From Octopus vulgaris (lineage: Eukaryota): 64,000 bases of DNA. The notes under the pieces are model-generated. The model did not search any database, was not told the DNA's origin, and saw nothing but the letters and a program-made list of their open reading frames with translations. This document shows, piece by piece, positions 10,240 to 60,854 of the stretch. The stretch covers positions 58,094,001 through 58,158,000 of the forward strand of contig OX597817.1 of the NCBI GenBank assembly GCA_951406725.2, in the 5' to 3' direction. The number at the start of each line of letters is the position of its first letter. Position 1 is the first letter of the stretch. Position numbers and translations under genes: made by a program.

Positions 10240-10580
10240 AGACTCCTTTGATTTCTATTCCACTCAACTGGGCCTCCATAGCCATTTGATGTATGTATAT
10301 TAAAAAATCTTACTGTGGTTTTATAATTAAATATTTGGAATTGTATAAAAGAATTTAGAATGTTTTGAGTGTTGTAAGAGTCTAAGCAATTTATTGCGCA
10401 AATTTTAACAACAAATTTTAACAAATTTTACAAATTTAACAAATTTTAACAAGTTTTAACAAATTTTAACAAATCTTAACAAATTTTAATAAATCTTAGC
10501 TAATTTTAACAACAAATTTTATCAACAAAATCTCATATGGGTCCCCATGGGCCATATGGATCATGCTTGAGAACCACTAC
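10240..10580 (-). mobile_element. hAT-type MITE (same family as 56699-56956) with an internal 10-bp AAATTTTAAC tandem expansion at ~10400-10525
   Basis: Terminal gagaaccact and internal similarity to the 56.7-kb copy in reverse orientation. Confidence 0.6.
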
Positions 10581-21624: not shown

Positions 21625-21779
21625 AGGCGTATGGGTGGCTGTGTGGTAAGTAACTTGCTTACGAACCACATGGTTCCAGGTTCAGTCCCACTGCGTGGCA
21701 CCTTGGGCAAGTGTCTTCTACTATAGCCTTGTGAGTGGATTTGGTAGACGGAAACTGAAAGAAGCTCGTTGTATATATG

Positions 21780-21810
<31 letters not shown>

Positions 21811-21995
21811 TTGTCCCCCCAACATCACTTGACAACCGATGCTGGTGTGTTTACGTCACTGTAACTTAATGGTTCGCAAAAGAGACCGATAGAATAAGTA
21901 CTAGGCTTACAAAGAATAAGTCCTGGGGTCGATTTGCTCGACTAAAGGCGGTGCTCCAGCATGGCCACAGTTAAATGACTGAAACAAGTAAAAGT
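21625..21995 (+). mobile_element. SINE family B (tRNA head, CCTTGGGCAAGT core, internal TA/TG microsatellite); other copies at ~23505-23845, 30160-30530(-), 37801-37950, 38600-38975, 59960-60360
   Basis: A/B-box-like head ggctgtgtggtaag...ggttcagtccc; many copies within the window. Confidence 0.85.
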
Positions 21996-26721: not shown

Positions 26722-27999
26722 TCATCCCAAAGAAGGCCAGAAAGCCGCAAAATACACAACTCCGTCTTCTACGTAAGACGAAACATAATCAACATGGAGA
26801 TTTTTTGCAGAAGCCTTCCTTACTTCATAAAGGAAACCATAACGAGATACGGAATGTCTTTGCCAATAATTCTTTTCCTGCTTGGAATTCCAGATGGCAC
26901 TAACAAAGGAATTGTCTCCATTGTTGAAGAATTTAACATAAATCAATGTCAGTTTGTTGTTGATCTGTTTCTTCAGCTCAAAGACGAAGTTGTCAAGAGT
27001 GATGCCTAACCAAGACACCGTTTTAATGCCAGGCTCTTCTGTTTTGGCATAAACGGAAGAGACCACAAGGCAATCATCAATTGATACCAAAGACTGAATG
27101 GTTAAATGCCATCCATTCTTCTTCAGTTCACTGATTCTAGCAAGATGTTCTTCTGGACTTTGGTGAGTATAAACCTTCTGACAAACAACATTTACATTTT
27201 CAAACACAATCAGAAAATTCAAGTGGCCCTCATGACAATAGGTCTCTAATAGTTTCACAGAGAAACCGAGGTCACATTGTTTACTTACAACAATATCCAC
27301 ATTATCAACCGAAACATCAAGACACACAAGCGACTGGTTAGCATTACTATGACTACTACTACTCCTATGCCATACTGTGTTAAAATAGGTTTTGCTGTCG
27401 AGTTGATGGCTGCTTAACCAGTGAAGGCTATAACTCAAAGACATCATCATATCAACATGTGCCTGCAGAAGATCATGAGGAATTATAATGGTAACGACTT
27501 GTTTACCATCTTCGGTCGATATATTTAATGAAGAATCACTGAGAGGCTTCCCTTCGTGCCATAATGGTAAGCTAGGAATCACACTGAGACCGTATCTCAT
27601 CAACCCATTGAGGTCCATGTCTTTAGACCAGGCATTAAACAACAAGACCCAAGTAAGTCCAGACTTATCATGCATCACAGTACATGATGTTCCCTCCATT
27701 GCTCCAGTATGGCCCCACGAACAGCCATTATCTTCCACCTCTAAGCCAAATCCATACCATTCATCACCATTCTCATATTCAGGACGGTTGAGCATCATTT
27801 GAACGGTTTCCCCTTCTAGCAGTTTGGACTGATTCTCAAACAAACAATTGAACAACTGGAGTACATCACTGGCATTGGCCACCCAGCCTCCATACGATTC
27901 CGCTCCATCCATTTGTACCAGACTCGAATTTGGAAGTGTCCATCCTTGGAAAGCTTGGGGTTTTCTCAGTTCCAGCCAAGATTTGTGGAAATAATTCAC
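26722..27999 (-). CDS. Terminal coding exon 6: C-terminal half of the hydrolase (HTG) plus five ~50-aa repeats
   Basis: 425-codon open frame; acceptor ctgtattccag|GTG, TGA stop at 26724-26722. Confidence 0.93.
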   Translation of the reverse strand: MNYFHKSWLELRKPQAFQGWTLPNSSLVQMDGAESYGGWVANASDVLQLFNCLFENQSKLLEGETVQMMLNRPEYENGDEWYGFGLEVEDNGCSWGHTGAMEGTSCTVMHDKSGLTWVLLFNAWSKDMDLNGLMRYGLSVIPSLPLWHEGKPLSDSSLNISTEDGKQVVTIIIPHDLLQAHVDMMMSLSYSLHWLSSHQLDSKTYFNTVWHRSSSSHSNANQSLVCLDVSVDNVDIVVSKQCDLGFSVKLLETYCHEGHLNFLIVFENVNVVCQKVYTHQSPEEHLARISELKKNGWHLTIQSLVSIDDCLVVSSVYAKTEEPGIKTVSWLGITLDNFVFELKKQINNKLTLIYVKFFNNGDNSFVSAIWNSKQEKNYWQRHSVSRYGFLYEVRKASAKNLHVDYVSSYVEDGVVYFAAFWPSLG

Positions 28000-30716
28000 C
28001 TGGAATACAGAAGAACAAAGACACAGGGTTATATATTTTGGTAAAGAATCACAAAGTTTAGAGGTTTAAGGCTGTCATCAAACCAACCCAGGAGGAAGGA
28101 GTGGACTGCGGTGGTTAGAGAGGAAGGAGAGAGATATAAGAGGAGGGGGATGAGAGAAAGAGAGGGGGAAGTGGAGCAAAAGATGGGCAGAGAGAGATGA
28201 GAAGATGAAGAGAGTAGTAATGGTGGTGGTGGTAATAATAGTAGCAGGAGGAGAAATAGTTTTAGTTGTTCATTTCCAAGTGAGTTCTGATCAAACAGAA
28301 ATATGATCAAAGATGTCCCAGCAATGACCATTTCATCTTTTTCATAATCAAATAAACACACCTGTAATTTCTTCTTTGAACATTAGTCTGAGAGCAGATG
28401 AAAGGCAAAGTCGACCTCGGTAGAATTTGAACTCAGAACACGAAGACAGACGAAATACCGTTAAGCATTTTGCCTGGCGTGCTAACGTTTCTTCTAGCTT
28501 GTCGCCTAGAAGAATCTTTTCTATTCCAGGCACAAAGCTCGAAATTTTTGGGGAGGAGGGGGATAGTCAATTAGATCGACCTCAGTATGCAACTGGTACT
28601 TAATTTATTGACCCCTGAAAGGATGAAAGACAAAGGTGACCTCTGCAGAATTTGAACTCTGAATGTAAAGACAGACGAAATACTGCTAAGAATTTCGTCT
28701 GGCATGCTAATGTTTCTGCCAGTTCTCGGCTTTTATATAAATGCTATAGAAATATTCAGCTTCACACAGTCGGAGCATATTCCTTCTTCATGTTTGAAAG
28801 ACCCCATGGAGGAATTACCATTCCAACTGAAGACAAGACTACATACCTCATCATTGCTAATAACACCACAAGTGTTATTATGTCCAGTTGTCATGTTGGT
28901 TATATTGACATTCTTCAGAATTTCTTTGAGGAATTCTGTGTATGGCTTCTGTTCCACTTTCTCAATAACTTTACCAAGAATCAAATAACCCAGGTTGGAA
29001 TAACTGTGCCGTTTACCTGTAAAGTAAGACTTGTACAATAATAAAATACAAACAGTCCACCTAGGTTTGTTCCCTCAACTATCAAATTCTTTGAACTTAT
29101 GATAGGTCCAGAAATTAAACAAATTAATCTTGGGCATTCCTTTGTTGTTGCTGCTGTTGATGATGATGATGAAAACTACCACTTGACAAGTTAATAAAGA
29201 TATAAATTAGTTACAGTTTGTGCATCAATTGTTTAACCCCATTTCTGGTTGAGTAGGATCAAAAACCATCCAGCCAGGACCATCACATTCCATTTTTTTA
29301 CTTTCTCCAAATATAATGTGTTTCAGAATAAGTTATTCCGTGAGACTTACTTTTTCTTAGCTGACAAAGCATTGTAATTTAAGGAAGGTTTAGCTATTAT
29401 TTCTACCCAATAAAGTAAACATGTAGAAGATTTTGGCCAGTGGCATGTAAAAAGCACAATCCGAACATGGTCGATGCCAGTCCCAACTGGGTCTTGTGCC
29501 AGTAGCACATAAAAAGCACCATCTGAACGTGGCTGATGCCAGTGCTGCCTGACTGGCTCCCATGCTGGTGGCATGTAAAAGCACCCACTACATTCTCTGA
29601 GTGGTTGGTGTTAGGAAGGGCATCCAGCTGTAGAAACCTTGCCAGATTAGATTGGAGCCTGGTGCAGCCTCCTGGCTTGCCAGTCTTCAGTCAAACTGTC
29701 CAACCTATGCCAGCTTGGAAAACGGACGTTAAACGATGATTATGATGATGATGAAGCATAAAATGAGAGTCTAGCAAAATAAAAAGAAACAAAACCATTC
29801 CAATCAATTTTTTGTTTGTTTCAAGAAATTTCCGGTGGGTAAATTGTAATTACCTGGGGGTAAATTGTAATTACCTGGAGTAAATTGTAATTGCCTGGGG
29901 GTAAATTGTAATTACCTGGAGTAAATTGTAATTTTTTGCTCATCATAAAACGTAAAAGTTTATCTTCTGAAGACATTTCCTTGTTCTTGAAGATATTATC
30001 TAAGTTCCAGAAGACAGCGTCGCCCACTTGGTCTCGATCCCATCCGGCGCTGTGCTGCAAAAGATGTTTCACTGTAATCTGGTTGAGACGATGATCTCCT
30101 TTAGAAGTGGATTTATAATTGTTCAAAATACCTGCAACAAAAAAAGGTATTAGAATATCTTTTAGCTTTTACTTGTTTCAGCCATTAGACTGTGGCCGTG
30201 CTGTAGCACCACCTTCAAGGATTTTTAGTTGACAGACTTGACCCTAGTACTTCTTTAATTTTAAGTCTGGTACTTATTCTATCGGTCTCTTTTGCTGAAC
30301 TGCTAAGTCATGGGAACAAAAACACACCAACACCAGTTGTCAAGCAGTGGTGAGGGACATACACACATAAAGGGCTTCTTTCAGTTTCCATCTACCAAAT
30401 CCACTCACAAGGCTTTGGTTGACCCGAAGCTATAGTAAAAAACGTTTGACCAAGGTGCCATGCAGTGGGACTGAACTTGGGACCATGTGGCTGGGAAGCA
30501 AACTTACCTCACAGTCTCACCTGTGCCTTTCAAAGGAAATCTATTTTAGAAACTTCAGAAGTGCAGGTGTGGCTGTGTGGTGAGAGGTTGGCTTTCCAGC
30601 CATGTGGTTACAGTTTCAATTTCACTGCATGCCACTTTGAGTAAGTGTCTTCTCCTATATAGCCTTGGGACAGTTAAAGCCTTGTAAGTGGATTTGGTAG
30701 ATGAGAACCGAAGGAA

Positions 30717-30760
<44 letters not shown>

Positions 30761-31626
30761 AGGGGAAGTCAAAAATTATCCGCACTTTTACCATAACATA
30801 TCTTTATTATTGTCACTCTGCCTTCAGCGCATGCATGCTTACAGTTGGTACTATTGAGGTCATGTGACTGAAGTTTGAGCCTGATCACGCTATTTTTCTT
30901 TCTGGAAACCATAACGTGTAAAGCCTGGCTGCTCCAATAGCAACATGCACCAAAGAAGAACAAAGAGAAGTGATCTGATTCCTCTGGTCGGAAGGTGTGT
31001 CAGGTGCTGAAATTCAAAGGAGGCTTTTAGTACAAATACAGGGACAGTACACTACCGTGTGGAAGTGTGTATGAGTGGAGTGAGAAGTTTAAAAGTGGCC
31101 GGACAAGCGTAATGTGCACGAAGAGGGAGCAGGACGCCCGTCCACCTCCACCACTGACGAGAAGATTCAGCAAGCTTGTGAGATGGTAAATGGTGAACCG
31201 TTTCACCATTACCTTCTCTCTCAGATCACTGCTCATTGTTCTTCTTTGCTGCACATTGCTAATGGAGCGGCCATGCTTACACTGTAAAGCCAGAAAGAAA
31301 GATAGAGCAATCAGGTTCAAACTTCAGTCACATGACTATAATAGTACCAACTGTAAGTATGCATGCGCTGAAGGCAGTGTAACAATAATAAAGATATATT
31401 ATGGTGGAAATGCGGATAATTTTTGACTTCTCATATATGTATGTGGCATGAAAAAAGCACTCACTACATTCTCGGAGTGGTTGGCGTTAGGAAGGGCATC
31501 CAGCTGTAGAAACTCTGCCAGATCAAGGTTGGAGCCTGGTGCAGCCATCTGGTTCACCAGTCCTCAGTCAAAATTGTCCAACCCATGCTAGCATGGAAAG
31601 CGGACGTTAGACGACGATGATGATGA

Positions 31627-31665
<39 letters not shown>

Positions 31666-34600
31666 TAGATACATATAAACATAAATACAAAGAGATATCA
31701 TCATCATTTAATGTCCCTTTTCCCATTCTGGCATGGGTTTGGCAGTTTGACAGGAACCAACAACCTACAGGGAGCTGTGCTGATTCCTGATGTCTGTTTA
31801 GCATGGTCTTTATGGCTGGATGATGTCCTTCCTAATGCCAACCACTTTGCAAAGTGGACTGGCAGCTTTTTTCATGTGAGGCACCGACTCTAGTCAGATA
31901 AGTATGATTTGTGTGTGTGTGTGTGTGTGTGTGTGATAAATACCAGGCTTAAAAAATAAGTACTGGAGTCAATTCATTTGACTAAATATTGAAGGCAGTG
32001 CCCCAGCATGGTCACAGTCCCATGACTGAAACAAGTAAAAGACAAAAGAAAAATATCGTTTTCTACTCTAGGCACAAGGCCTGAAATTTTGGGGAAGGTG
32101 GGGCAGTCCATTAGATTGACCCCAGTATGCAACTGGTATTTAATTTATCAACCCCGAAAAGATGAAATGCAAAGTCAACCTCGGTGGAATTTGAACTCAG
32201 AACGTAAAAACAGATGAAATACCGCTAAGTATTTCACCCGACATGCTAACGTTTCTGCCAGTTCCACCACCTTAACAAAAGAAAAATATTAAAAACAAAA
32301 CAATCAGTGAAAATTTCACAATTCTGACTTACCTTTTGGTCCAAAGACTTTGGCAGACAATTCCAGCTTCTTTTGCTGCCAAAGAACCAGAATGCCAATG
32401 GCTGTTAAAGTCTTACTAATACTTGCTATACGGAACACAGAATCTGGGTGGACCTTTCGGTCGAGGCTTGCCATTCCATAACCTGGAATATTACAAATAT
32501 TTTTAAAATTTCAAAAAACGTAACAAAATGGCCCTAATGATTCTTCTGTCCTCATAAAAGGGTTCGTTTTTAATTTTGCGGAATAACTATAGTTTAATTA
32601 TTAGCCAGCCCCCAAATCCTGCAACACCATATCTGATGGCATCAAAGACATACAGGTGTATTAGACGCACCTCAATTTCAGCAGAGCATATTCAAGAAAA
32701 AATTACAGTTCTATATTTAAGAGATGAGGAATTATGTACATTATTTACAATATTTACATTTGACGGATATTTGTCCTCATCTTGTTTGTCGTTAACACAA
32801 TGTTTCAGGTGATTTGGGGAAATTTCGAACCAGGGTTCTCATTCCTAAGGTATTTTTTGACATCATTATTAATATTATTATTATTCAGGTCACTGCTTGG
32901 AATCAAACTCGGAATCTTGGGGCTAGTAGCCCACGCTCTTAACCACTACACCATATGTCCGTGGGCAATTACAGAGTGAATTTTAGGGCATATAAACCCA
33001 ACATTTTTGTATCCTTCCTTAATACCGGTTCCCATATGCTACTCATATCTGCACTCGGTCTGCTTAGGTGGTTGTCGTGTCCTAGCATATGTGCTGCTTC
33101 TTTTAGTTTTCGTATTTTCCAGTGGTGTTCTCTGTCTATTATTTTAACTTCATCCCACAGAGGAAGGTGGTCTCTATTTTTCCATACATGATCAGCTATA
33201 CCCTATTTTTCAACATCTCATGTCACAGCTTTACGATGTTACTCTACCCTTATTTTGAGGGGACGGCATGTCTCGCCTTTGTATAACCTACCACAACTGC
33301 AGTCTTTGGTCTAATAATAATAACAATAATAATAATAATAATAACGTTGAAAAATACCCTAGGAATGAGAACCTAGGTTTGAAATTTCCCCAAGACACAT
33401 GATGAAGGCTGGAGAGTATATCAGCCGAAACGTGTTAACAAGAAACAAGATGAGGACAAATATCCATCAAATGTAAATAATGTAAATAATATACAAGAAA
33501 AAATTATTTGGTGCCTTAAAGCTTAAGGGAGGTCAAACTTCACATATAGGATCTGGTGTGATTTTCAGAGAGACTTTTGGAGAAAAAGTGGGTTGTATGA
33601 GAATATTAAGGGTCCTCAGGCATAACTGTTTACCAGGCCTTTTTGAATGTATGTTTTAGTAGAATTAACATGTAGAGTGTTAGCCCTTCAGAGTTCCGGG
33701 CCCTTGGGCAGTGCCTGATTGACCAACGGCTCAGTCCACCCTTGGTTGTATGCCATCGAACAGTAAGTTCTACTAGGTTACATGGTCCTAGTGGCAGGAG
33801 ACCACACCTGACCACACAACAACCTCTGCAGGCCTTGTGGCTATAACAACCAGAATAAAGACATTAGTCTCTAATAAAGACCAAAATAAAGATTGTTAGT
33901 CTTTATTTTTAGCACAAGGCCAGCAATTTTAGCCGGAGGGGGTTACTCAAGGGTTTTGCTCCACTACCCTACCAGTTCTCAATTGGTGCTTTATTTTATT
34001 GATCCCCCAAGGGATAAAATGCATAGCTAACATTGGCAGGAATTGAACCCAGAACATAAAGAGCCAAAACAAAGTCCATGAGGGACTTTCTACAATGCTT
34101 GACTGACTCTAATAATTCAGCCAATCGGCTGATCATAATGCTAATGTGTATGTATATGTATGTGTGTCTGACTTATATGTATGTGTGTAGGTTATATATG
34201 TGTATGTTTGTAAGTAACTTATGTGTGTGTGTGTTACTTGTAAAATGTTCTCATGATCTGACCTTGTCTGTAAATCTGCTCTCCCTTATAACTTAGGGCC
34301 ACAGCAGCCCCTGGGATTCCTTGTTCTTTCATAAAGTTTACAATAATATCATCAAACTGCTTCATATAAATCGGTGGTGCTTCAGTTGGTGAGACTGGCA
34401 GAGAATCTGAAAAGAGATGACGAAAGGGTTTTGCAGTTTTAAGACAATTTTCAGGTCAGCATTCGACAGGGGAGCTACTACAATGTAAGGGTAAGTTTGA
34501 GGGTGAGGTGAGGGTTATCTAACACTGAATATTCTTTGGGGAAGGGCAAGTTACCAAATAAACCCACCTCTTGCATAACGAGAAGATCTGTCAGGAAATT

Positions 34601-38020: not shown

Positions 38021-38750
38021 AAAGAAAAAATTGGACAGAAGATGGGGGGGGGGTGAGTAACGGGTTGCTCACCTGAATGGCATGTTATTCCAATTTTTGT
38101 GGAGGAAGTTGGTAGTGGTGGGCCAGAGAACACCTGAGATCTCGACAGCGACTCGACTCAAGCTGATAGCGGCCGGTCAGATAGATAGATATTTCTGTGT
38201 GAGTTAGAGGCTGAGAAACCAACTAAGGAATAGTACCTGTATATATGTATGTATCATCATCATCATCATCATCATCGTTTAACGTCCGCTTTCCATGCTG
38301 TCATGGGTTGGTCGATTTGACTTAGGACTGGCAAGCCAGAAGGCAGCACCAGGCTTCAATCTTGATCTGGCAGAGTTTCTACAGCTGGATGCCCTTCCTA
38401 ATGCCAACCACTCCGAGAGTGTAGTGGGTGCTTTTACGTGCCAGTCAGGCGGTACTGGCAACGGCCTCGGAAAAGTCGTGTTTTTTTTTTTTTTACGTGT
38501 CACTTGCTCACCGGCACAAATGCCAGTAAGACGACGCTGGTAACAATCACGCTCGAATGGTGCTTTTTATGGGATTACTTTAGGTTTGTAGGCGCACTAC
38601 CCAACCACACTTCCCAACCACATGGTTCCAGGTTCAGTCCCCCTGTGTGACACATAGGGCAAGTGTCTTCTACTCTAACCTTTGGCCGACCAAAGCCTTG
38701 TGAGTGGATTTGATAGACAGAGAGTGAAAGAAGCCCGTCGTGTATATATC

Positions 38751-38799
<49 letters not shown>

Positions 38800-39711
38800 A
38801 CCGCTTGACAACCGATATTGGTGTGTTTATACCCCCGTAACCTAGCGATTCGGCAAAATAGACCGATAGAATAAGTACTGGGCTTACAAAGAATAAGTTC
38901 TGGGGTCGTTTTGTTCGACTAAAGGCAGTGCTCCAGCATGGCCGCAGTCAAATGACTGAAACAAACAAAAGATTAAAATTGGAAGATGAAAAACAGAAAC
39001 TAATAAAAGTGTATCTTTTATCTTTCATTTGTTTCATTCAGTGGAGTGTGGCCATGCTGGGGCACCAGCTTCAACGGTTTTCGTCGAACAAAACAACTCC
39101 AGCACTTAGTGCTTTGTCTTTTTTGTTTTAGACCTGGTAGTTTTTTTAGTTTTTTTTTTTATTACCTGATCCAAAATGCCATGCAATGGGATCGAACCCC
39201 AAACCACATTCCTGCAAAACGAGCTTCTTGATAAGACATAATATAGAAGACTAATTATATAATATACAGGAGGAGATGGTCATGGCTGGCATACATTTCG
39301 ATCGTAGGTCTGCTCGGTCATAGTAGACAAAAACGACGACACTAACTCAACTATTAAACAAAACATTGTATCGCCCCATTCGTTGCTCTTATCACACGAC
39401 TAGTTTTCTCTCCTGTCTTCAACAGCAGATACTTCCATAGTTATCTCCCTTTGGCCATTCTATATTTCTCAAATTCTTTCAATATTTATTGTAACTTTTT
39501 TCATCCGTTTTTTTTTTTATAGTCATGAACTAAATAAACAAATTTAGGGGCCTGACCGGCCGCTGTCAGCTTGAGTCGAGTCGCTGTCGAGATCTCAGGT
39601 GTTCTCTGGCCCACCACTACCAACTTCCTCCACAAAAATTGGAATAACATGCCATTCAGGTGTGCAAACCGTTACTCACCCCCCCCCCATCTTCTGTCCC
39701 ATTTTTTCTTT
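38021..39711. repeat. 160-bp near-identical inverted repeat (38021-38180 / 39552-39711)
   Basis: Arms are reverse complements with about 4 mismatches. Confidence 0.92.
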
Positions 39712-39925: not shown

Positions 39926-40398
39926 TCATGATTGCATCTTCGAATATAGTTAACACAGCCTTCACAAATCATTCATGTACACCTAATTTCTTTTGATTAC
40001 AAAACATGGTACTTTGTCAAAGGCCATCTCCATGACAACGAATACCAGCCGTAGTGGTTTACTTTGAGCCAATTATTTCTCCTCACAGAGAAGATTTGCA
40101 CATGTGGTACCTCTTCTCAACACAACGCTCATAGAGCTGAACTGCATTTCACCTAAACTAGGTTTCTTCCTGATTAGTTCAGATGTGACTCTCCCTGTGG
40201 CCTTTGTTGTCTGGTCCAGTAACTTACATAACTCTATAATTTCTCCCCTTTAGAGGATATTCTTTACCCTTGTAGCAATTTCTAATGACACTGCCACACT
40301 AGTCATTGCATATGGCACTCTTTTGTATCACTCGATCTGCTATTCCCATGGCTGTCATGTATCTTATCTCATCACATATTTTAAGCATCTCAACAACT

Positions 40399-40968
40399 AG
40401 AAAATTATTATTTTAAATCTCACAACAAGAGATATTCAGTAACAATACTTTGGAGTAAAGATTGTTTGCCAACATAACATGGCATCCTGGTTTAGGACAA
40501 ATGTTGCTGCAATTTAACCCCAGGAGACATCGTCTCCAGCTGGCTATATGACACAATCTGTGTCATATTTTCAAACAAGGGAACCTAGCACCCCCACTCA
40601 GCTCAAAACATCTGTGTATCACGATTTCCAGGTTATTTCTCTTTTCATGCTGTGAGATTTACAAATAATAATTTTCTAATTTATAGATCAGTGACTAGTT
40701 GTCACTTTGAAAGCTATATATTTTGAACACGAATTTGGCAGCGCCACCTCTAGCTGAATAATTATTCTGCGCTGATTAAGGGAAATAACCTGGAAATCGT
40801 GATAGACAAATGTTTTGAGCTGAGTGAGGGTGCTAGATTCCCTTGTTTGAAAATATAAGGACACAGATCATGTCGTATAGCAGCCGGAGATGATATCTCC
40901 TAGGGCTAAATTACAGCAACATTCGTCCTAAACCAGGAATGCCATGTTATGTTGGCAAACAATCTTTA
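40399..40968. mobile_element. Retrozyme-like element inserted as an inverted dimer
   Basis: Left part (40399-40645) and right part (40648-40968) are opposite-orientation copies of the 354-bp unit at 56985; 12-bp TSD atctcaacaact at 40387-40398 and 40969-40980; degenerate hammerhead at ~40766-40810. Confidence 0.8.
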
Positions 40969-41061
40969 ATCTCAACAACTGTCCTTCATCAATCAGTAGT
41001 TTTCCCTGTCTTCATTTCCTTAATTGCTCTATCTACCATTCTGTTGTCAACTAGAATTACT

Positions 41062-44192: not shown

Positions 44193-44236
<44 letters not shown>

Positions 44237-44239
<3 letters not shown>

Positions 44240-46685
44240 GTTAATAAAATATATGCATATATATAAACATATATGTACGTACCTACCTCTACATGTACAT
44301 ATACACGCATATATGTGTACAGGACACCAAAAAGACGTCGAACACATAGAGAGACGAAAAACATAGACACAAACCAAGGAACAAGACAGGCAAAAAAAAA
44401 GAGAGATGCAGGACAATAAGCACAACGAAAAATCCCCTTCTTCAGTCGCTAAAGTTTCATCTACTAAACGTTTCGAAGGATAAAAGCGAGACGTATACTT
44501 CGAATGAAAAATTCCTTCCTGCGAAAAGCAAATCAATTAAAATTCTGAGATCTTTTCGCAGAGGGGTAAAAAAGCAAGACGGTAACGACAGTACAAACAT
44601 ATAAACAGTAAGAAATATATATATAAACAGTGGAAAAATAAATATATAACAGTGAGAGACAGGACAAGGAGAACAAGATAAGAAGGGCTGTTAACGCCAG
44701 ACGAAAAAAGTATTGCAAACGCTGGATTATAGTGGACGACGAGAGAGGAAGATGTCGACCAGTGGCCTTAGAAGGCGGGCGAGAAAGGACAGGATAGCAG
44801 TTACGACGGAAGTAACGTCGCAGATGGACGACGGGAATGGGGGAGGAGGAGCAAGAGGAAGAGAGAGAAGAAGGGGAATGGTGCGAGGAGACCATGAAGA
44901 ACAGTGAGGGGAGAGAGAAAGGAAGAGACAAGTTAAGTGAGGGAAAAAAGACGAAAAAGGGAATGGGAGAGAAAGAAAGAAAGAAAGATGCAGAGTCGCG
45001 TGAGAGTTAATATCAAGGCGAACTTGATAAACAGAACAATCTTACTTAATAGGGTGCGTGCGTTTAGTCGTATAATATGTTAATAAAATATATGCATATA
45101 TATAAACATATATGTACGTACCTACCTCTACATGTACATATACACGCATATATGTGTACAGGACACCAAAAAGACGTCGAACACATAGAGAGACGAAAAA
45201 CATAGACACAAACCAAGGAACAAGACAGGCAAAAAAAAGAGAGATGCAGGACAATAAGCACAACGAAAAATCCCCTTCTTCAGTCGCTAAAGTTTCATCT
45301 ACTAAACGTTTCGAAGGATAAAAGCGAGACGTATACTTCGAATGAAAAATTCCTTCCTGCGAAAAGCAAATCAATTAAAATTCTGAGATCTTTTCGCAGA
45401 GGGGTAAAAAAAGCAAGACGGTAACGACAGTACAAACATATAAACAGTAAGAAATATATATATAAACAGTGGAAAAATAAATATATAACAGTGAGAGACA
45501 GGACAAGGAGAACAAGATAAGAAGGGCTGTTAACGCCAGACGAAAAAAGTATTGCAAACGCTGGATTATAGTGGACGACGAGAGAGGAAGATGTCGACCA
45601 GTGGCCTTAGAAGGCGGGCGAGAAAGGACAGGATAGCAGTTACGACGGAAGTAACGTCGCAGATGGACGACGGGAATGGGGGAGGAGGAGCAAGAGGAAG
45701 AGAGAGAAGAAGGGGAATGGTGCGAGGAGACCATGAAGAACAGTGAGGGGGAGAGAGAAAGGAAGAGACAAGTTAAGTGAGGGAAAAAAGACGAAAAAGG
45801 GAATGGGAGAGAAAGAAAGAAAGAAAGATGCAGAGTCGCGTGAGAGTTAATATCAAGGCGAACTTGATAAACAGAACAATCTTACTTAATAGGGTGCGTG
45901 CGTTTAGTCGTATAATATGTTAATAAAATATATGCATATATATAAACATATATGTACGTACCTACCTCTACATGTACATATACACGCATATATGTGTACA
46001 GGACACCAAAAAGACGTCGAACACATAGAGAGACGAAAAACATAGACACAAACCAAGGAACAAGACAGGCAAAAAAAGAGAGATGCAGGACAATAAGCAC
46101 AACGAAAAATCCCCTTCTTCAGTCGCTAAAGTTTCATCTACTAAACGTTTCGAAGGATAAAAGCGAGACGTATACTTCGAATGAAAAATTCCTTCCTGCG
46201 AAAAGCAAATCAATTAAAATTCTGAGATCTTTTCGCAGAGGGGTAAAAAAAGCAAGACGGTAACGACAGTACAAACATATAAACAGTAAGAAATATATAT
46301 ATAAACAGTGGAAAAATAAATATATAACAGTGAGAGACAGGACAAGGAGAACAAGATAAGAAGGGCTGTTAACGCCAGACGAAAAAAGTATTGCAAACGC
46401 TGGATTATAGTGGACGACGAGAGAGGAAGATGTCGACCAGTGGCCTTAGAAGGCGGGCGAGAAAGGACAGGATAGCAGTTACGACGGAAGTAACGTCGCA
46501 GATGGACGACGGGAATGGGGGAGGAGGAGCAAGAGGAAGAGAGAGAAGAAGGGGAATGGTGCGAGGAGACCATGAAGAACAGTGAGGGGGAGAGAGAAAG
46601 GAAGAGACAAGTTAAGTGAGGGAAAAAAGACGAAAAAGGGAATGGGAGAGAAAGAAAGAAAGAAAGATGCAGAGTCGCGTGAGAG
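44237..46685. repeat. Tandem array, period 839-840 bp, structure A-B-A-B-A (A ~770 bp, B ~69 bp)
   Basis: ttaataaaat recurs at 44241, 45080 and 45920; copies differ essentially only in homopolymer length; flanked by (TA)n on both sides. Confidence 0.95.
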
Positions 46686-46778
46686 ATATATGTACACATA
46701 TATGTATATATATATATGTACACACATATGTATATATATATGTGTGCATGTGTACATATATACATATATATATATATG

Positions 46779-55373: not shown

Positions 55374-56368
55374 TATTATTCCTTTAGATTTTGTCACAAG
55401 GTCAGCAATTTTTAGGGGGCAGTGGCTAGTCAATTACATTGACCCCAGGATGGGTGTTTTCTAAAAAGATAAACAGATAAAAACCGTAACAAGTAGAGAT
55501 GAATACCTTGCTCAAGTATTTTCTGATTTCATTGATGAAATACAGGTTTTCTAAAGCAGTTTTTTAATAATACTACCATCACCACATGTTATTTCTAGTT
55601 ATGTTAGATTAGTTAATGCTTTGTGTTGTAGTAAATTGATTTAACACAGACTTGGCTATTGTTTTTTTCAGGCAGAGGATGACTCTGAATTAATTATTTA
55701 ACAATCTTATTTGCCCTCTTCCTTTATCCTTGTCATCATCATCATCATCATCATCACCACCCTCTTCCTGTTCTTTTATATCTGTTGTTCCTTGCTGGCA
55801 CGACTTTTCAAAGCAGTGTCTAACAGATGGATGCACTTTCTGAGGCCAACCTTTCACTCTGCAGGAATATGCTGTACATCATCATCATCATCATTATCAT
55901 CATCATCGTTTAAGGTCCGTTTTTTGATGCTGGCATGGGTTGGACGGTCCAACAAGAGCTGGTGAGCCAGAACACGGGTCCAAACACCCTGTTTTGGCAT
56001 GGTTTCTACAGTTGGATGCCCTTCCTAATGCCAATCACTTTGTAGAGTGTGGACTGGGTGCCTTTTAGGTGGGACCTGCACTAGTGATGTCGGGTGAGTA
56101 GTATTGAGGGAGGTGGCTTTATGCCAAGTGTTAAGAGGTTAAAGCATGATAGAGGGACAAAAAATAGATGTCTTATAGTTATGGAAAACACAGTTACCTT
56201 TGTGAAGTATATTTTCCACTTAAATGTGGCTAACCCTTAAGAGTTGATGCTACTGTAGCTTGTAGCCTCAGGAGGACATCTCCTCCAGCTGGCTGTTGAT
56301 ACACTATCTGTGCCCTATCAGTATTTTCAAAGGGAAGTCATCCTTCCCATCTCCAGCCTGACGTGATA

Positions 56369-56413
56369 CACACGGACCTGGGTTTCTGGATATTGACCCA
56401 TCGTCAGCATGTG
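56369..56413 (-). ncRNA. Type I hammerhead ribozyme, intact core, GUC cleavage triplet
   Basis: Minus strand: cacatg-CTGACGA-tggg(tcaata)tcca-GAAA-cccagg-TC-cgtgtg. Stem I 6 bp, stem II 4 bp, short near-palindromic stem III. Confidence 0.8.
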
Positions 56414-56698
56414 ACAACCACCGGTTGGCGATGTGAAGTGGTTCCATATGTGAAGTGGTTCCAATGTGAAGTGGTAAATATACTTCACAATGTCGTGCAG
56501 CTACTGTTTATACCTTGCTCAGAAATTTATTATTGACCTTTGACCTTTGACCTTTCTTGCAAAAGAGAGAAGTAGGTTGTGAAGATGGATCAAGGGTATA
56601 CCTCCAAGTTACAGGAATATGAATATAAGAGAAGTGAACCAGAGAATTGGACAGGGAAATGGGTCTGTTCTAAATATTATAACATACATGGTATAACT

Positions 56699-56956
56699 CA
56701 GTGGTTCTCAGCTGGGGTCAACATGATCATTGGGGGGCCCACAGACGGTCTTGTTGCTAAAATTTATGTGCAATAAACTGGTTATGCATCTATGATAAAT
56801 AAAATATTTAAACAATTTTTTTTATACGATTCCAAATAATATTTAATTATAAAAATATAATATGCTTATTTTAAAACATTGAATGGCTATGGGGTTCCAC
56901 CTGGGTAAAATAGGAATTAAAGGAGTTCCTAGGTAAAAAATGGTCGAGAACCACTG
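56699..56956. mobile_element. hAT-type MITE
   Basis: TIR cagtggttctc / gagaaccactg. Confidence 0.7.
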
Positions 56957-56984
56957 GTATTCACTGGAATATACAGAATACAAT

Positions 56985-57393
56985 AAAGATTGTTTGCCAA
57001 CATAACATGGCAGTCCTGGCTTAGGACGAATGTTGCTGTAATTTAGCTCCAGGAGACATCGTCTCCAGCTGGCTATACAACATGATCCGTGTCCTTATAT
57101 TTTCAAACAAGGGAATCTAGCACCCCCACTCAGCTCTAAACAATATCTGTGTATTGCGATTTCTGGGTTATTTCCCTTCATCAGCATAGAATAATTGTTT
57201 GGCTAGAGGTGGTGCTGATAATTTCCCCATTCAAAATATGTAGTTTTCAAAATGACAACTAGTCACTGATTTATAAATTAGAAAATTACTAGTTTTTAAA
57301 TCTACAACGAGAGATATACAGCAACAGTATTTTGTAGGAAAGATTGTTTGCTATACACAGAAATTTGCGACACACAGATATTGTTTTGAGCTG
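56985..57393 (-). mobile_element. 354-bp retrozyme-like unit with terminal redundancy and a short inverted fragment
   Basis: aaagattgtttgc at 56985 and again at 57339; 57358-57393 is an inverted copy of the hammerhead 3' half and its flank. Confidence 0.75.
57146..57190 (-). ncRNA. Type I hammerhead ribozyme in the 354-bp unit
   Basis: tctatg-CTGATGA-aggg(aaataa)ccca-GAAA-tcgcaa-TA-cacaga; comparison with the 40-kb copies suggests a palindromic stem III ATCGCGAT. Confidence 0.68.
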
Positions 57394-57686
57394 GTGATGG
57401 TGATGATGGTAGTGGTGGTGGTGATGGTGCTGGTAGTAGTGGTGGTGCTGATGGTGGTGGTGCTGATGGTGGTGGTGCTGGTGCTAGTGGTGGTGGTGAT
57501 GGTGGTAGTGGTGATGGTTGGTGGTGATGATGGTGATGGTGGAGGTGCTGGTGGTAGTGGTGGTGGTGATGGTGGTGGTGGTGGTGGTGGTGGTGGTGGT
57601 GGAGGTGGTGGTTGTGCTGGTGATGGTGGTGATGGTGGTGGTAGTGCTGGTGGTGGTGCTAGTGGTGATGGTGGTGATGGTGGTAG

Positions 57687-57717
<31 letters not shown>

Positions 57718-58410
57718 GGTGGTGGTTGTGCTGGTGATGGTGGTGATGGTGGTGGTAGTGCTGGTGGTGGTGCTAGTGGTGATGGTGGTGATGGTGGTAG
57801 TGGTGGTGGTGGTGGTGGTGGTGGTGGTGGTGATGGTGGTGATGGTGGTGGTGGTGATGGTGGTGGTGGTGGTGATGGTGGTGGTGCTGGCGCTGGTGGT
57901 GGTGCTGGTGGTAGTGGTGCTGGTGGTGGTGGTGGTAGTGGTGGTTGTGGTGGTGGTGATGGTGCTGGTGGTAGTGGTGGTGGTGGTGGTGGTGCTGATG
58001 GTGGTGCTGATGGTGGTGGTGGTGGTGGTGGTGGTGATGGTGGTGGTGATGGTGATGGTGGTGATGGTGGTGGTGGTGGTGGTGGTGGTGGTGGTGGTGG
58101 TGGTGGTGATGGTGCTGGCGCTGGTGCTGGTGCTGGTGGTGGTGGTGCTGATGGTGGTGGTGGTAGTGGTGGTTGTGGTGGTGGTGGTGGTGATGGTGCT
58201 GGTGGTAGTGGTGGTGGTGGTGGTGCTGATGGTGGTGGTGGTGCTGGTGGTGGTGGTGGTGGTGGTGGTGGTGGTGGTGGTGGTGGTGGTGATGGTGGTG
58301 CTGCTGGTGGTGGTGGTAGTGGTGGTGGTGCTGATGGTGATGGTGGTGATGCTGGTGGTGGTGCTGGTGGTGATGGTGGTGCTGGTGGTTGTGGTGGTGT
58401 GGTGGTTGTT
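57391..58410. repeat. ~1-kb (GGT)n-derived repeat with higher-order internal duplications
   Basis: Seen directly; gives poly-Gly/Pro/Val ORFs in several frames. Confidence 0.92.
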
Positions 58411-58628
58411 ATGTTGAGATGGTAACGATGCCTCACAGCAAACTTCAGTTTTAAATAGCCATTCTGAAATCGAAAGATTATCTGGAGATCATGAAAGGTT
58501 ACTAAAGTCCACCAGTACACATAAACACACACACACATATGGACATATCAATATCTAAGATATATTTGTGTGGGTGTGCGTAATAAAGATACATAATAAC
58601 TGAAACAAGTAAAAGATAAAATGTGTGT

Positions 58629-58672
<44 letters not shown>

Positions 58673-58674
58673 TC

Positions 58675-59530
58675 GACAGAGTATAAGTACTTTGAGAGAA
58701 AAGTTGGACCTAAGAAGCATCAGATGAGGTGTGCAAGAGAGACAACTGCGTTGGTATGGCCATGTGGTGAGAATGGATGTGGATAGCTGTGTGAAAAAGT
58801 GCCACACACTAGTGGTTGAGGGAACCTGTGGAAGAGGTAGACCCAGGAAAACCTGGGATGAGGTGGTGAAGCATGACCTTCAAACATAGGGCCTCACCGA
58901 AACAATGACTAGTAACCAGGACCTTTGGAGGTGTGCTGTGCTTGAGAGGACTCGGCAAGCTCAAGTGAGATCATAACCTTGTGGTCTATGCCAGGGGTGT
59001 AACCAGCCCACTTATATAATGTGTACCTTTCCTTTATTGGACACTAAATTCTGCTTGCAAAGACCTGTTGAGGCAAGTGAAATCGAAATCGAAACCAAAT
59101 TCGATGACTGGCATCCGTGCTAGTGTAGCACTAAGAGTACCATCTGAGTGTGATCATCGTTAGAGCAACAAACTGGCTTCCATGCCGGTGGCATGTAAAA
59201 AGCACAATTCGAGCATTATTGTTACCTGCGTCACCTTACTGGCACTTGTGCTGGAGGCACGTGAAAAACATTTGAGCGAGGTCATTGCCAGTACCACTAG
59301 ACTGGGTCCTGTGCAGGTGGCACATGAAAAATACCATTTGAGCATGTCATTGCCAATATCGCCTGACTGGCCCTCGTGCTGGTGGCATGTAAAAGCACTC
59401 ACTACACTCACGGAGTGGTTGGCGTTAGGAAGGGCATCCAGCTGTAGAAACTCTGCCAGATCAGATTAGAGCCTGGTTCGTCCAACCCATGCTAGCATGG
59501 AAAGCGGACATTAAATGCTGCTGCTGCTGC
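58675..59530 (+). mobile_element. RTE-type LINE 3' end: ORF C-terminus plus 3' UTR. The same 3' UTR, usually with a (GAT)n tail, recurs at ~29435, 31443, 34790, 35730, 38254(-), 42180, 42645(-), 48500, 54323(-), 55876(-)
   Basis: LREKLDLRSIR*GVQERQLRWYGHVVRM...GRGRPRKTWDEVVKHDL, then ...gttggcgttaggaagggcatccagctgtagaaac... Confidence 0.85.
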
Positions 59531-59634: not shown

Positions 59635-60854
59635 GTATGTACAAATATATGTATGTATGTATGTGTGTGTATGTGTATGTGCGTGTGTGTGTGTGTATCT
59701 TTTGCTGCTGCACGTACAGGTAAAGGATGTATTCCTTGGCAAGGAAGCCAAATGCTCTGAGACCAATGTAATTGCACCTAGTTACAAACACACTTTCTCA
59801 CAACCGTTGCTCTCATAAGTACAGTCATAAAACCACCACAAATTAGTGATCACACCCTCTCTCCCACCTACCCACCCCTTTTGGCAACTGACCTGTAACA
59901 AGCAACCTTGTCATTCACCAATTCCAATATAAGCCTAAAAAGAAATAAATAAATAGGTCCAGGTGTGGCTGTGTGGTAAGAAGTTTGCTTCCCAACCCTG
60001 TAGGCCTGGGTTCAACTCCAATGCACAGCACTTTTGAGCAAGTGTCTTCTACTATAGCTTTAGATTGATTAAAGGCTTGTGAGTGGCTTCAGTAGAGGGA
60101 AACTGAAAGAAGCCCATCATGTATATGTGTGTGTGTGTGTGTGTTTGAGTCTGTATTTGTCTCCTCCCATTGCTTGACAAATGGTGTTGGTGTAATAGCG
60201 ATTTAGCAAAAGAGATTGATAGAATTTGTACCAGGCCTTTTAAAAAGAAATAATAACAATAAGTCCAGGGGGCAACTCGTTTGAGTAGAGTTTTTCAAGG
60301 TGGTGCCCCAGCATGGCCACAGTCTAGTAACTGAGACAAGTAAAATATAAAAGATAAAACAAAACAAAAAAATGATTCCATTAGTTAATGCTAATGACCA
60401 AATCATGTTTTGACCATTGTAACACGGCTGCCTCATTGGTCACTACAGGTCAGCAAAGGAAGCTCTAAATATGTGACCATCACCACATAATGTTTCCCTC
60501 CAATCACTGACAGTTTCTTGATACTCTTTCAGAAACCACTGAACTGTGAGTCTGAAAGGTCAGAAAATAAGTTACCAAAAATAGCCTCATTAATATTTCA
60601 ATGGAGAATCAGGTTGACCGGTGGTAGTAGTGGTGGGGATTTTGTCCTTCTTTTTCTTTCTTTTTTATTTTGTTTTGTAGTTTTAGTTTTTTGTTTTTTA
60701 TATATGTATACATATATGTATATATATTTTATTTCTGGTTGTCTTTTTTAACAAACAATCTTTATTACATAATTATAGCGGATATTACGCATCTACACAA
60801 CAAAAGACACATTTATTTCTATGTAAGGGAATAAATGTGTATGTTTATGCTAAT

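Follow-up and report, generated by a model that had tools for sequence, protein, structure and literature searches.

The closest known kind of element to the repeats described here is the metazoan non-LTR retrozyme. In the mussel Mytilus galloprovincialis a retrozyme family of 350-390 bp is accompanied by abundant circles (Cervera and de la Pena 2020, PMC7229834), and 235 Rfam hammerheads have been counted in the giant squid genome (PMC6962438), so that a cephalopod family comes as no surprise. In axolotl, the ribozyme HHR_Amex2 shows weak cleavage on its own and good cleavage when dimeric (PMC7229834), and a rationale of dimers and palindromes has been set out, together with the occurrence of close motif pairs on opposite strands (PMC4209133). 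As to the enzyme that moves such elements, the accessible part of a 2020 review holds that animal retrozymes show no motif identifying their helper (PMC7761336), and a preprint of 2026 contends that retrozymes come from Penelope-like elements (PLEs) and that vertebrate non-LTR retrozymes lack autonomy (Li, Clavereau and Pollet, 10.64898/2026.07.22.740005). The case made for vertebrates combines co-occurrence with pLTR homology in Xenopus, and the classes named in the accessible text include no mollusc.

PLE insertions themselves have a recognizable form: they are 5'-truncated, often have at their 5' end a truncated copy in inverted orientation, and bear a tail of 30-40 bp at one end (PMC8557442). 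In the anole element Poseidon the tail represents the span between two internal start sites of the reverse transcriptase (RT), both downstream of the hammerhead, and insertion in vitro did not require hammerhead cleavage (PMC11167929). Since cleavage is dispensable for insertion under those conditions, a PLE footprint does not by itself imply a circle.

Here we describe two families of hammerhead-bearing repeats, A and B, in a 64,000-nt stretch of Octopus vulgaris contig OX597817.1 (the window). Both are real and apparently undescribed: no description of an Octopus retrozyme was found in the literature searched, which excluded Repbase, Dfam, subscription papers and the 2020 and 2026 supplements, and the supplement of PMC7229834 may list more species. 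Judging from the sequence, we consider it probable that this non-coding, multi-copy repeat with a predicted hammerhead is a retrozyme-type element that is not autonomous and relies on a PLE enzyme for its copying; the evidence speaks more strongly for a retrozyme-like mode of action with a PLE as mover than for formal membership among retrozymes. Like the Mytilus family, as far as the accessible account goes, it has a mollusc host, a non-coding unit of ~350 nt with a GC content of 37%, a type I hammerhead with a short helix III, a self-paired predicted circle and a target duplication of more than 4 bp, whereas the Octopus copies are dispersed, mostly of sub-unit length, inverted and tailed, and form no tandem dimer in the window; the two are likened by features, not by sequence homology (PMC7229834). 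With vertebrate retrozymes the repeats share the same proposed relationship to PLEs and, as in many of the vertebrate families, a dispersed occurrence as monomers, and differ in that the anatomy of the insertion ends is read here, of which the accessible part of that account gives none (10.64898/2026.07.22.740005). This anatomy is in our view the useful part, as the ends carry a PLE signature and indicate a defined internal priming site, and the footprint makes the helper question testable by counting ends over thousands of copies.

The repeat units and their predicted hammerheads

Copy A lies on the minus strand at 56985..57351 and consists of a 354-nt unit with 13 nt of terminal redundancy (367 nt), its sense 3' end being at 56984/56985. 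The unit restarts, as the original prediction had it, with the same 13-mer at 56985-56997 and 57339-57351, spaced by 354 nt. This 13-mer also occurs inside other copies, at 40457-40469 and, reversed, at 40955-40967, and is therefore element sequence, giving a length of 354 + 13 nt; for the same reason the 13-bp repeat is ruled out as a target duplication of copy A. The element had been drawn as extending over 56985-57393, of which the repeat unit is real but stops at 57351; it is followed by a short inverted second arm on the plus strand (57357..57391), which comprises the 3' half of a hammerhead, is joined 5' to 5' to copy A, and is interrupted by a GGT-rich microsatellite of 1 kb (57392-58406). 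No clear target duplication was found for insertion A, the best matches being 6 nt. The predicted lack of an ORF also holds, with the longest stop-free stretches running to 33-50 codons in the six frames of the closed unit; with that maximum of 50 codons, a unit of 354 nt and 37% GC agrees with the retrozyme description (non-coding, 150-450 bp, GC below 50%, no LTR). As 354 is a multiple of 3, an ORF read by rolling around the circle was considered and rejected, every frame of copy A running into stops.

A type I hammerhead is predicted on the minus strand of copy A at 57146..57190, where the original prediction had placed one, on the basis of a descriptor match, covariation and majority letters. 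Its core lies at 57184-57178 and its GAAA at 57163-57160, with a predicted cut at AUA after 57152; helix I has 6 bp, helix II 3 bp with a 6-nt loop, and helix III 2 bp with a loop that is palindromic in its majority form. The genomic copy is decayed: helix I contains one mismatch, the palindrome of helix III is broken, and an A-A mismatch occupies the helix II base. An exact-core descriptor, composed after the motif had been seen, matched twice in the window and twice in 30 shuffled windows together (mean 0.07). Both families contain the CUGANGA and GAAA core with an NUH site and an open helix I, and a relaxed core scan of the window gave no further convincing hammerhead beyond those of A and B. 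Pattern scans for the motif returned 0 matches in viral contigs and 0 in metagenome contigs. The Rfam models, which had been proposed as a check, failed to recognize it (0 matches in the whole window at the gathering score, 0 at E<=10 for 56700-57420), a match of this kind being a library match that stands outside the biochemical definition of a type I hammerhead. By free energy, copy A's motif folds otherwise than in its active form (z -1.0). At 10.1-11.1, the base of helix II, the usual G-C pair is replaced by U-A in B and by A-A or A-G in A-family copies, and this unpaired position leaves a doubt about the hammerhead of family A. Axolotl HHR_Amex2 likewise combines a two-pair helix III and tetraloop with a mismatched helix II base, although the mismatch there is U-U and HHR_Amex2 occurs in tandem arrays (PMC7229834).

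A sister element, absent from the original prediction, lies 740 bp from copy A (56196-56541) and is 63% identical to it over 167 nt. Arm 1 of this family B insertion (56201..56433, minus strand, with an approximate 5' limit) carries a type I hammerhead at 56369..56413, recognized by descriptor and covariation, with an intact core, a GUC site and a predicted cut after 56375. The ribozyme is better preserved than that of A, the layout is likewise two-armed and tailed, and compensatory changes distinguish A from B not only within the ribozyme but also in a helix bridging the head-to-tail junction.

Comparison of these copies favours a conserved ribozyme, as had been supposed. Among A, B and C2 (the plus-strand arm of insertion C, below), 5 of 12 helix pairs are altered on both sides, a number reached in 13 of 500 shuffles with three sequences only, and slid registers give at most 2 double-changed pairs against 5 in the true register. 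This covariation lends the three predicted helices modest but consistent support from three sequences; a consensus fold of four fragments recovered helix II alone, with double changes at 5 of 34 pairs. Further support comes from majority letters in contigs of two DNA runs (X2 and X11), taken from the best 40 of 199 difference rows, which repair two of copy A's three defects: the letter at 57187 restores helix I (98% of depth in X2, 88% in X11) and that at 57155 the helix III palindrome (69% and 93%). In family B they improve helices I and II, at 56409 (58% and 65%) and 56390 (77% and 87%). By eye, each of the three helix III variants in the window is one CpG transition away from the same palindrome.

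The runs X2 and X11 belong to a survey of contig depth over 56150-57395 in 4 of 24 runs, which also includes two presumed RNA runs. The two DNA runs placed 14390 and 10874 contigs on this stretch of 1.2 kb, which holds A, B and an unrelated repeat, and their deepest bins fall on A and B, in agreement with the prediction of a multi-copy non-coding family (more than 10,000 contigs per DNA run). At A's 3' end the depth in X2 is ~19,000 times that of the unique flank, a hint rather than a count of a family A copy number of the order of 10^4.

Anatomy of the insertions

A further family A copy had been noted at 40399, running from the end of the unit into its start. It does so, for 57 nt, and the end-to-start order is thus correct, but this is not a separate permuted copy: it is arm C1 (40399..40648, minus strand) of a single two-armed inverted insertion, C (40399-40968), whose other arm, C2 (40651..40968, plus strand), is joined to it 5' to 5'. 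Arm C1 is 5'-truncated inside the hammerhead core and its tail runs 57 nt past the shared 3' point; C2 is 5'-truncated near unit position 32, has G8 changed to U in its hammerhead core, and ends at a 3' point identical to copy A's. A 12-bp direct repeat abuts both ends as the target-site duplication of insertion C (left copy 40387..40398, right copy 40969..40980), with 123 of 200000 random pairs as good.

Family B shows the same organization. The 3' end of arm 1 falls no more than a few nt from the homologous point in A, and the inverted arm 2 (56431..56535, plus strand) consists of a stutter, the 3' end of the unit and then a tail of ~45 nt that aligns gap-free to A's unit start. The end of arm 2 at 56535 is a point where contigs come loose in X2 too (57 contigs), and a candidate target duplication of 5-6 bp flanks the insertion at 56196-56201 and 56536-56541 (676 of 200000 random pairs). 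The stutter, 17 bp x 2.7 at 56431-56475, lies exactly at the joint of the two arms and is possibly due to repeated re-priming during insertion.

Base by base, then, the three insertions (A, B and C) each contain, joined at the 5' end, a truncated copy in inverted orientation, and two of the three have a one-sided tail (57 and ~45 nt), A's second arm being cut off by the microsatellite. Their arms are 5'-truncated and end either at one shared point ~170 nt past the predicted cut (168 nt in A, 164 nt in C2, 175 nt in B) or 45-57 nt beyond that point. The agreement extends to the base in A and C2, which end on an identical one, and to a few nt in B, as measured from the homologous position. These ends do not bear out the 'circularly permuted' description, with its free entry into the circle: two internal start sites together with truncation account for the apparent permutation, and free entry is unneeded. 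Consistent with 5' truncation, summed depth in X2 decreases towards the hammerhead, from 1.31M at the 3' end to 0.29M in A and from 0.38-0.78M to 0.07M in B, although the gradient is partly a mapping artefact caused by local divergence of A upstream of the hammerhead, and summed contig depth is no copy number. In that region (57254-57213) C2 and A share the letter at only 31 of 41 positions.

The resemblance to PLE insertions is close. Like them the Octopus copies combine 5' truncation, an inverted arm joined at the 5' end and a one-sided tail (PMC8557442, PMC11167929), and their 3' ends lie downstream of the hammerhead cut, not at the cut (Craig et al. 2021; Frangieh et al. 2024). In the accessible accounts the 3' point of Poseidon is, by subtraction, about 85-92 nt after the cut, against 164-175 nt here (PMC11167929), and the published tails of 30-40 bp compare with 45-57 nt here (PMC8557442). 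The Octopus element further differs from PLEs in being without an ORF and in having a tail that enters the unit's own start (PMC8557442, PMC11167929). No ORF with RT and GIY-YIG, as expected of an autonomous PLE, adjoins the element, and no remnant of either was found in the 150 of 194 frames scanned (the 44 shortest left out). Truncation, inverted arms, tail and the 12-bp duplication favour the Penelope-type mobilization that had been suggested, and the PLE pattern of insertion, in an element that has no ORF, no RT or GIY-YIG remnant and a tail leading into its own start, is the reason why we regard these copies as retrozyme-type units probably moved by a PLE enzyme.

The template and competing explanations

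The genomic copies have a closed periodicity of 354 nt, in that A repeats 13 nt and C1 continues 57 nt into the unit start. A 10-bp helix is predicted across this head-to-tail junction on the minus strand, between the unit end (57031..57040) and the unit start (57317..57326). In A a helix of 10 bp was reached by 11 of 2000 shuffles; C1 preserves 8 of the 10 pairs by eye; and in B the helix has 8 bp in register with two double changes, although 8 bp by itself arises in 109 of 2000 shuffles and is weak. We take this to suggest a working RNA that extends across the junction, as is true of a circle and of an uncleaved multimer alike. No full tandem dimer occurs within the window, 55500-59000 having also been checked specifically. 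Among the best 15 of 176 joints in the contigs, the best 12 of 57 rows between joints and the best 24 of 2019 loose ends, one joint in X11 links 57295 to 56982, and in X2 and in X11 a single contig each joins B's 3' end to its tail. At 56984 the stretch is left by 155 and 162 DNA contigs, whose consensus is similar to the unit start, with an agreement of about 0.5.

None of 100 shuffles folds as well as the closed unit (z -3.4). We considered this fold as evidence for a circle and set it aside as weak, given that the antisense strand folds equally well and that 2 of 23 control windows have a lower z. From the two runs guessed to be RNA came 981 and 545 contigs, whose profile is like that of the DNA runs, the unrelated neighbouring repeat being similarly covered, and no pile-ups of starts or ends were seen in them; contigs cannot show ends, strand or level and are therefore silent on circles. 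One record of such a run (X18, record 19) is a 387-nt contig of depth 47 over 56203-56423 in family B. A circular or tandem contig is expected to have a 30-nt terminal overlap from the word size used in contig building, and the length would fit a unit of ~357 nt plus such an overlap, which is only a lead.

We hypothesize that master copies would be arranged head-to-tail and transcribed on the hammerhead strand, and that the hammerhead, probably most effective when dimeric through its palindromic helix III, would cut the multimer into unit-length pieces. A host ligase may then close the unit-length RNA, as has been demonstrated for mussel and axolotl retrozymes. A PLE RT-endonuclease would nick the target and start reverse transcribing from within the RNA, either ~165-175 nt downstream of the cut or at a second site one tail-length further, and priming from both target strands, or fold-back, could produce the inverted arms. 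Most copies would stop early and a few, like A, would pass an intact hammerhead and exceed one unit. Copy A is longer than the unit with an uncut hammerhead inside, and so needs a circular or an uncleaved multimeric template. Cleavage, circularization and the partner PLE enzyme are what we infer rather than observe, and the copies in the window are decaying and probably inactive. A more specific version is that the insertions record a retrozyme RNA circle read by a Penelope-type RT from fixed internal sites marked by the junction stem, and through the re-ligated hammerhead, to give more-than-unit copies; we put this forward tentatively and consider it less likely than not. If true, it would amount to footprint-level evidence for the enzyme that moves animal retrozymes and for its start point; the two octopus families concerned are abundant, apparently undescribed, and have ends that lend themselves to a genome-wide count.

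Three other explanations have to be weighed against a retrozyme-type element copied by a PLE enzyme. An autonomous Octopus PLE, or a simple deletion derivative of one, may have left the copies as 5'-truncated ends (solo pLTRs), with a hammerhead inherited from the pLTR and no circular RNA stage. Every insertion feature is after all a PLE feature (PMC8557442), PLE hammerheads in animal genomes are mostly dispersed single motifs with some close opposite-strand pairs (PMC4209133), Penelope has expanded in coleoids (PMC8967140), and the lack of a tandem dimer in the window agrees with it. We nevertheless think it unlikely: the element is without an ORF, its tail, at two loci and in contigs, leads back into the start of the unit itself, where the Poseidon tail lies inside the ORF start (PMC11167929), and its helices (I of 6 bp, III present) are closer to the canonical retrozyme than to the minimal PLE hammerhead (II of 7-8 bp, I of 4-5 bp; PMC4209133). 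A deletion derivative with tandem masters, for its part, would hardly differ from the PLE-copied retrozyme-type element that we prefer.

The version in the original prediction, a circular RNA reverse transcribed from free entry points into randomly permuted copies, is improbable. It would explain why C1 and A differ in start and end and why A is longer than the unit, and the fold of the closed unit might be counted in its favour were it not for the control windows and the antisense strand; it leaves no reason for A and C2 to end on the same base with B so close to the homologous point, or for a depth that is steeply 3'-weighted rather than flat. Least credible is a MITE or fold-back DNA element with a hammerhead-like motif arising by chance. 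Insertions B and C do have inverted outer ends, and the Rfam result is negative, but the inverted arms run from ~35 to 318 nt, differing at each insertion and unequal within one, where a MITE has fixed short terminal inverted repeats (TIRs); A's long arm has no terminal inverted repeat at all, the motif covaries between families, and a genuine short-TIR element at 56699-56957 looks very different.

Neighbouring features of the window

The 56699-56957 element (259 bp) lies between B and A, has imperfect inverted ends of ~11-13 bp, is multi-copy in the contigs, and has a second copy at 10242-10414; we take it to be of hAT-type MITE character. Insertions A, B and C are all at least 6 kb upstream of a coding region for a beta-lactamase-domain protein, which has five coding exons on the minus strand (26725-34422). 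Its 447-codon frame at 26725-28065 is 98% identical to the Octopus sinensis protein and 67% to that of Argonauta, confirming the cephalopod host that had been deduced. The protein carries PF00144, with PF17660 in the O. sinensis record, and is found across molluscs, at 31-53% identity outside octopods. An 840-bp tandem triplication at 44231-46688, with >99% identity, is either a recent duplication or an assembly artefact. A dispersed family of 350-400 bp with a central microsatellite (21635-21994, 30160-30733 as an inverted pair, 38610-38978, 59960-60356 and others) showed no hammerhead core and is presumably a tRNA-derived octopus SINE.
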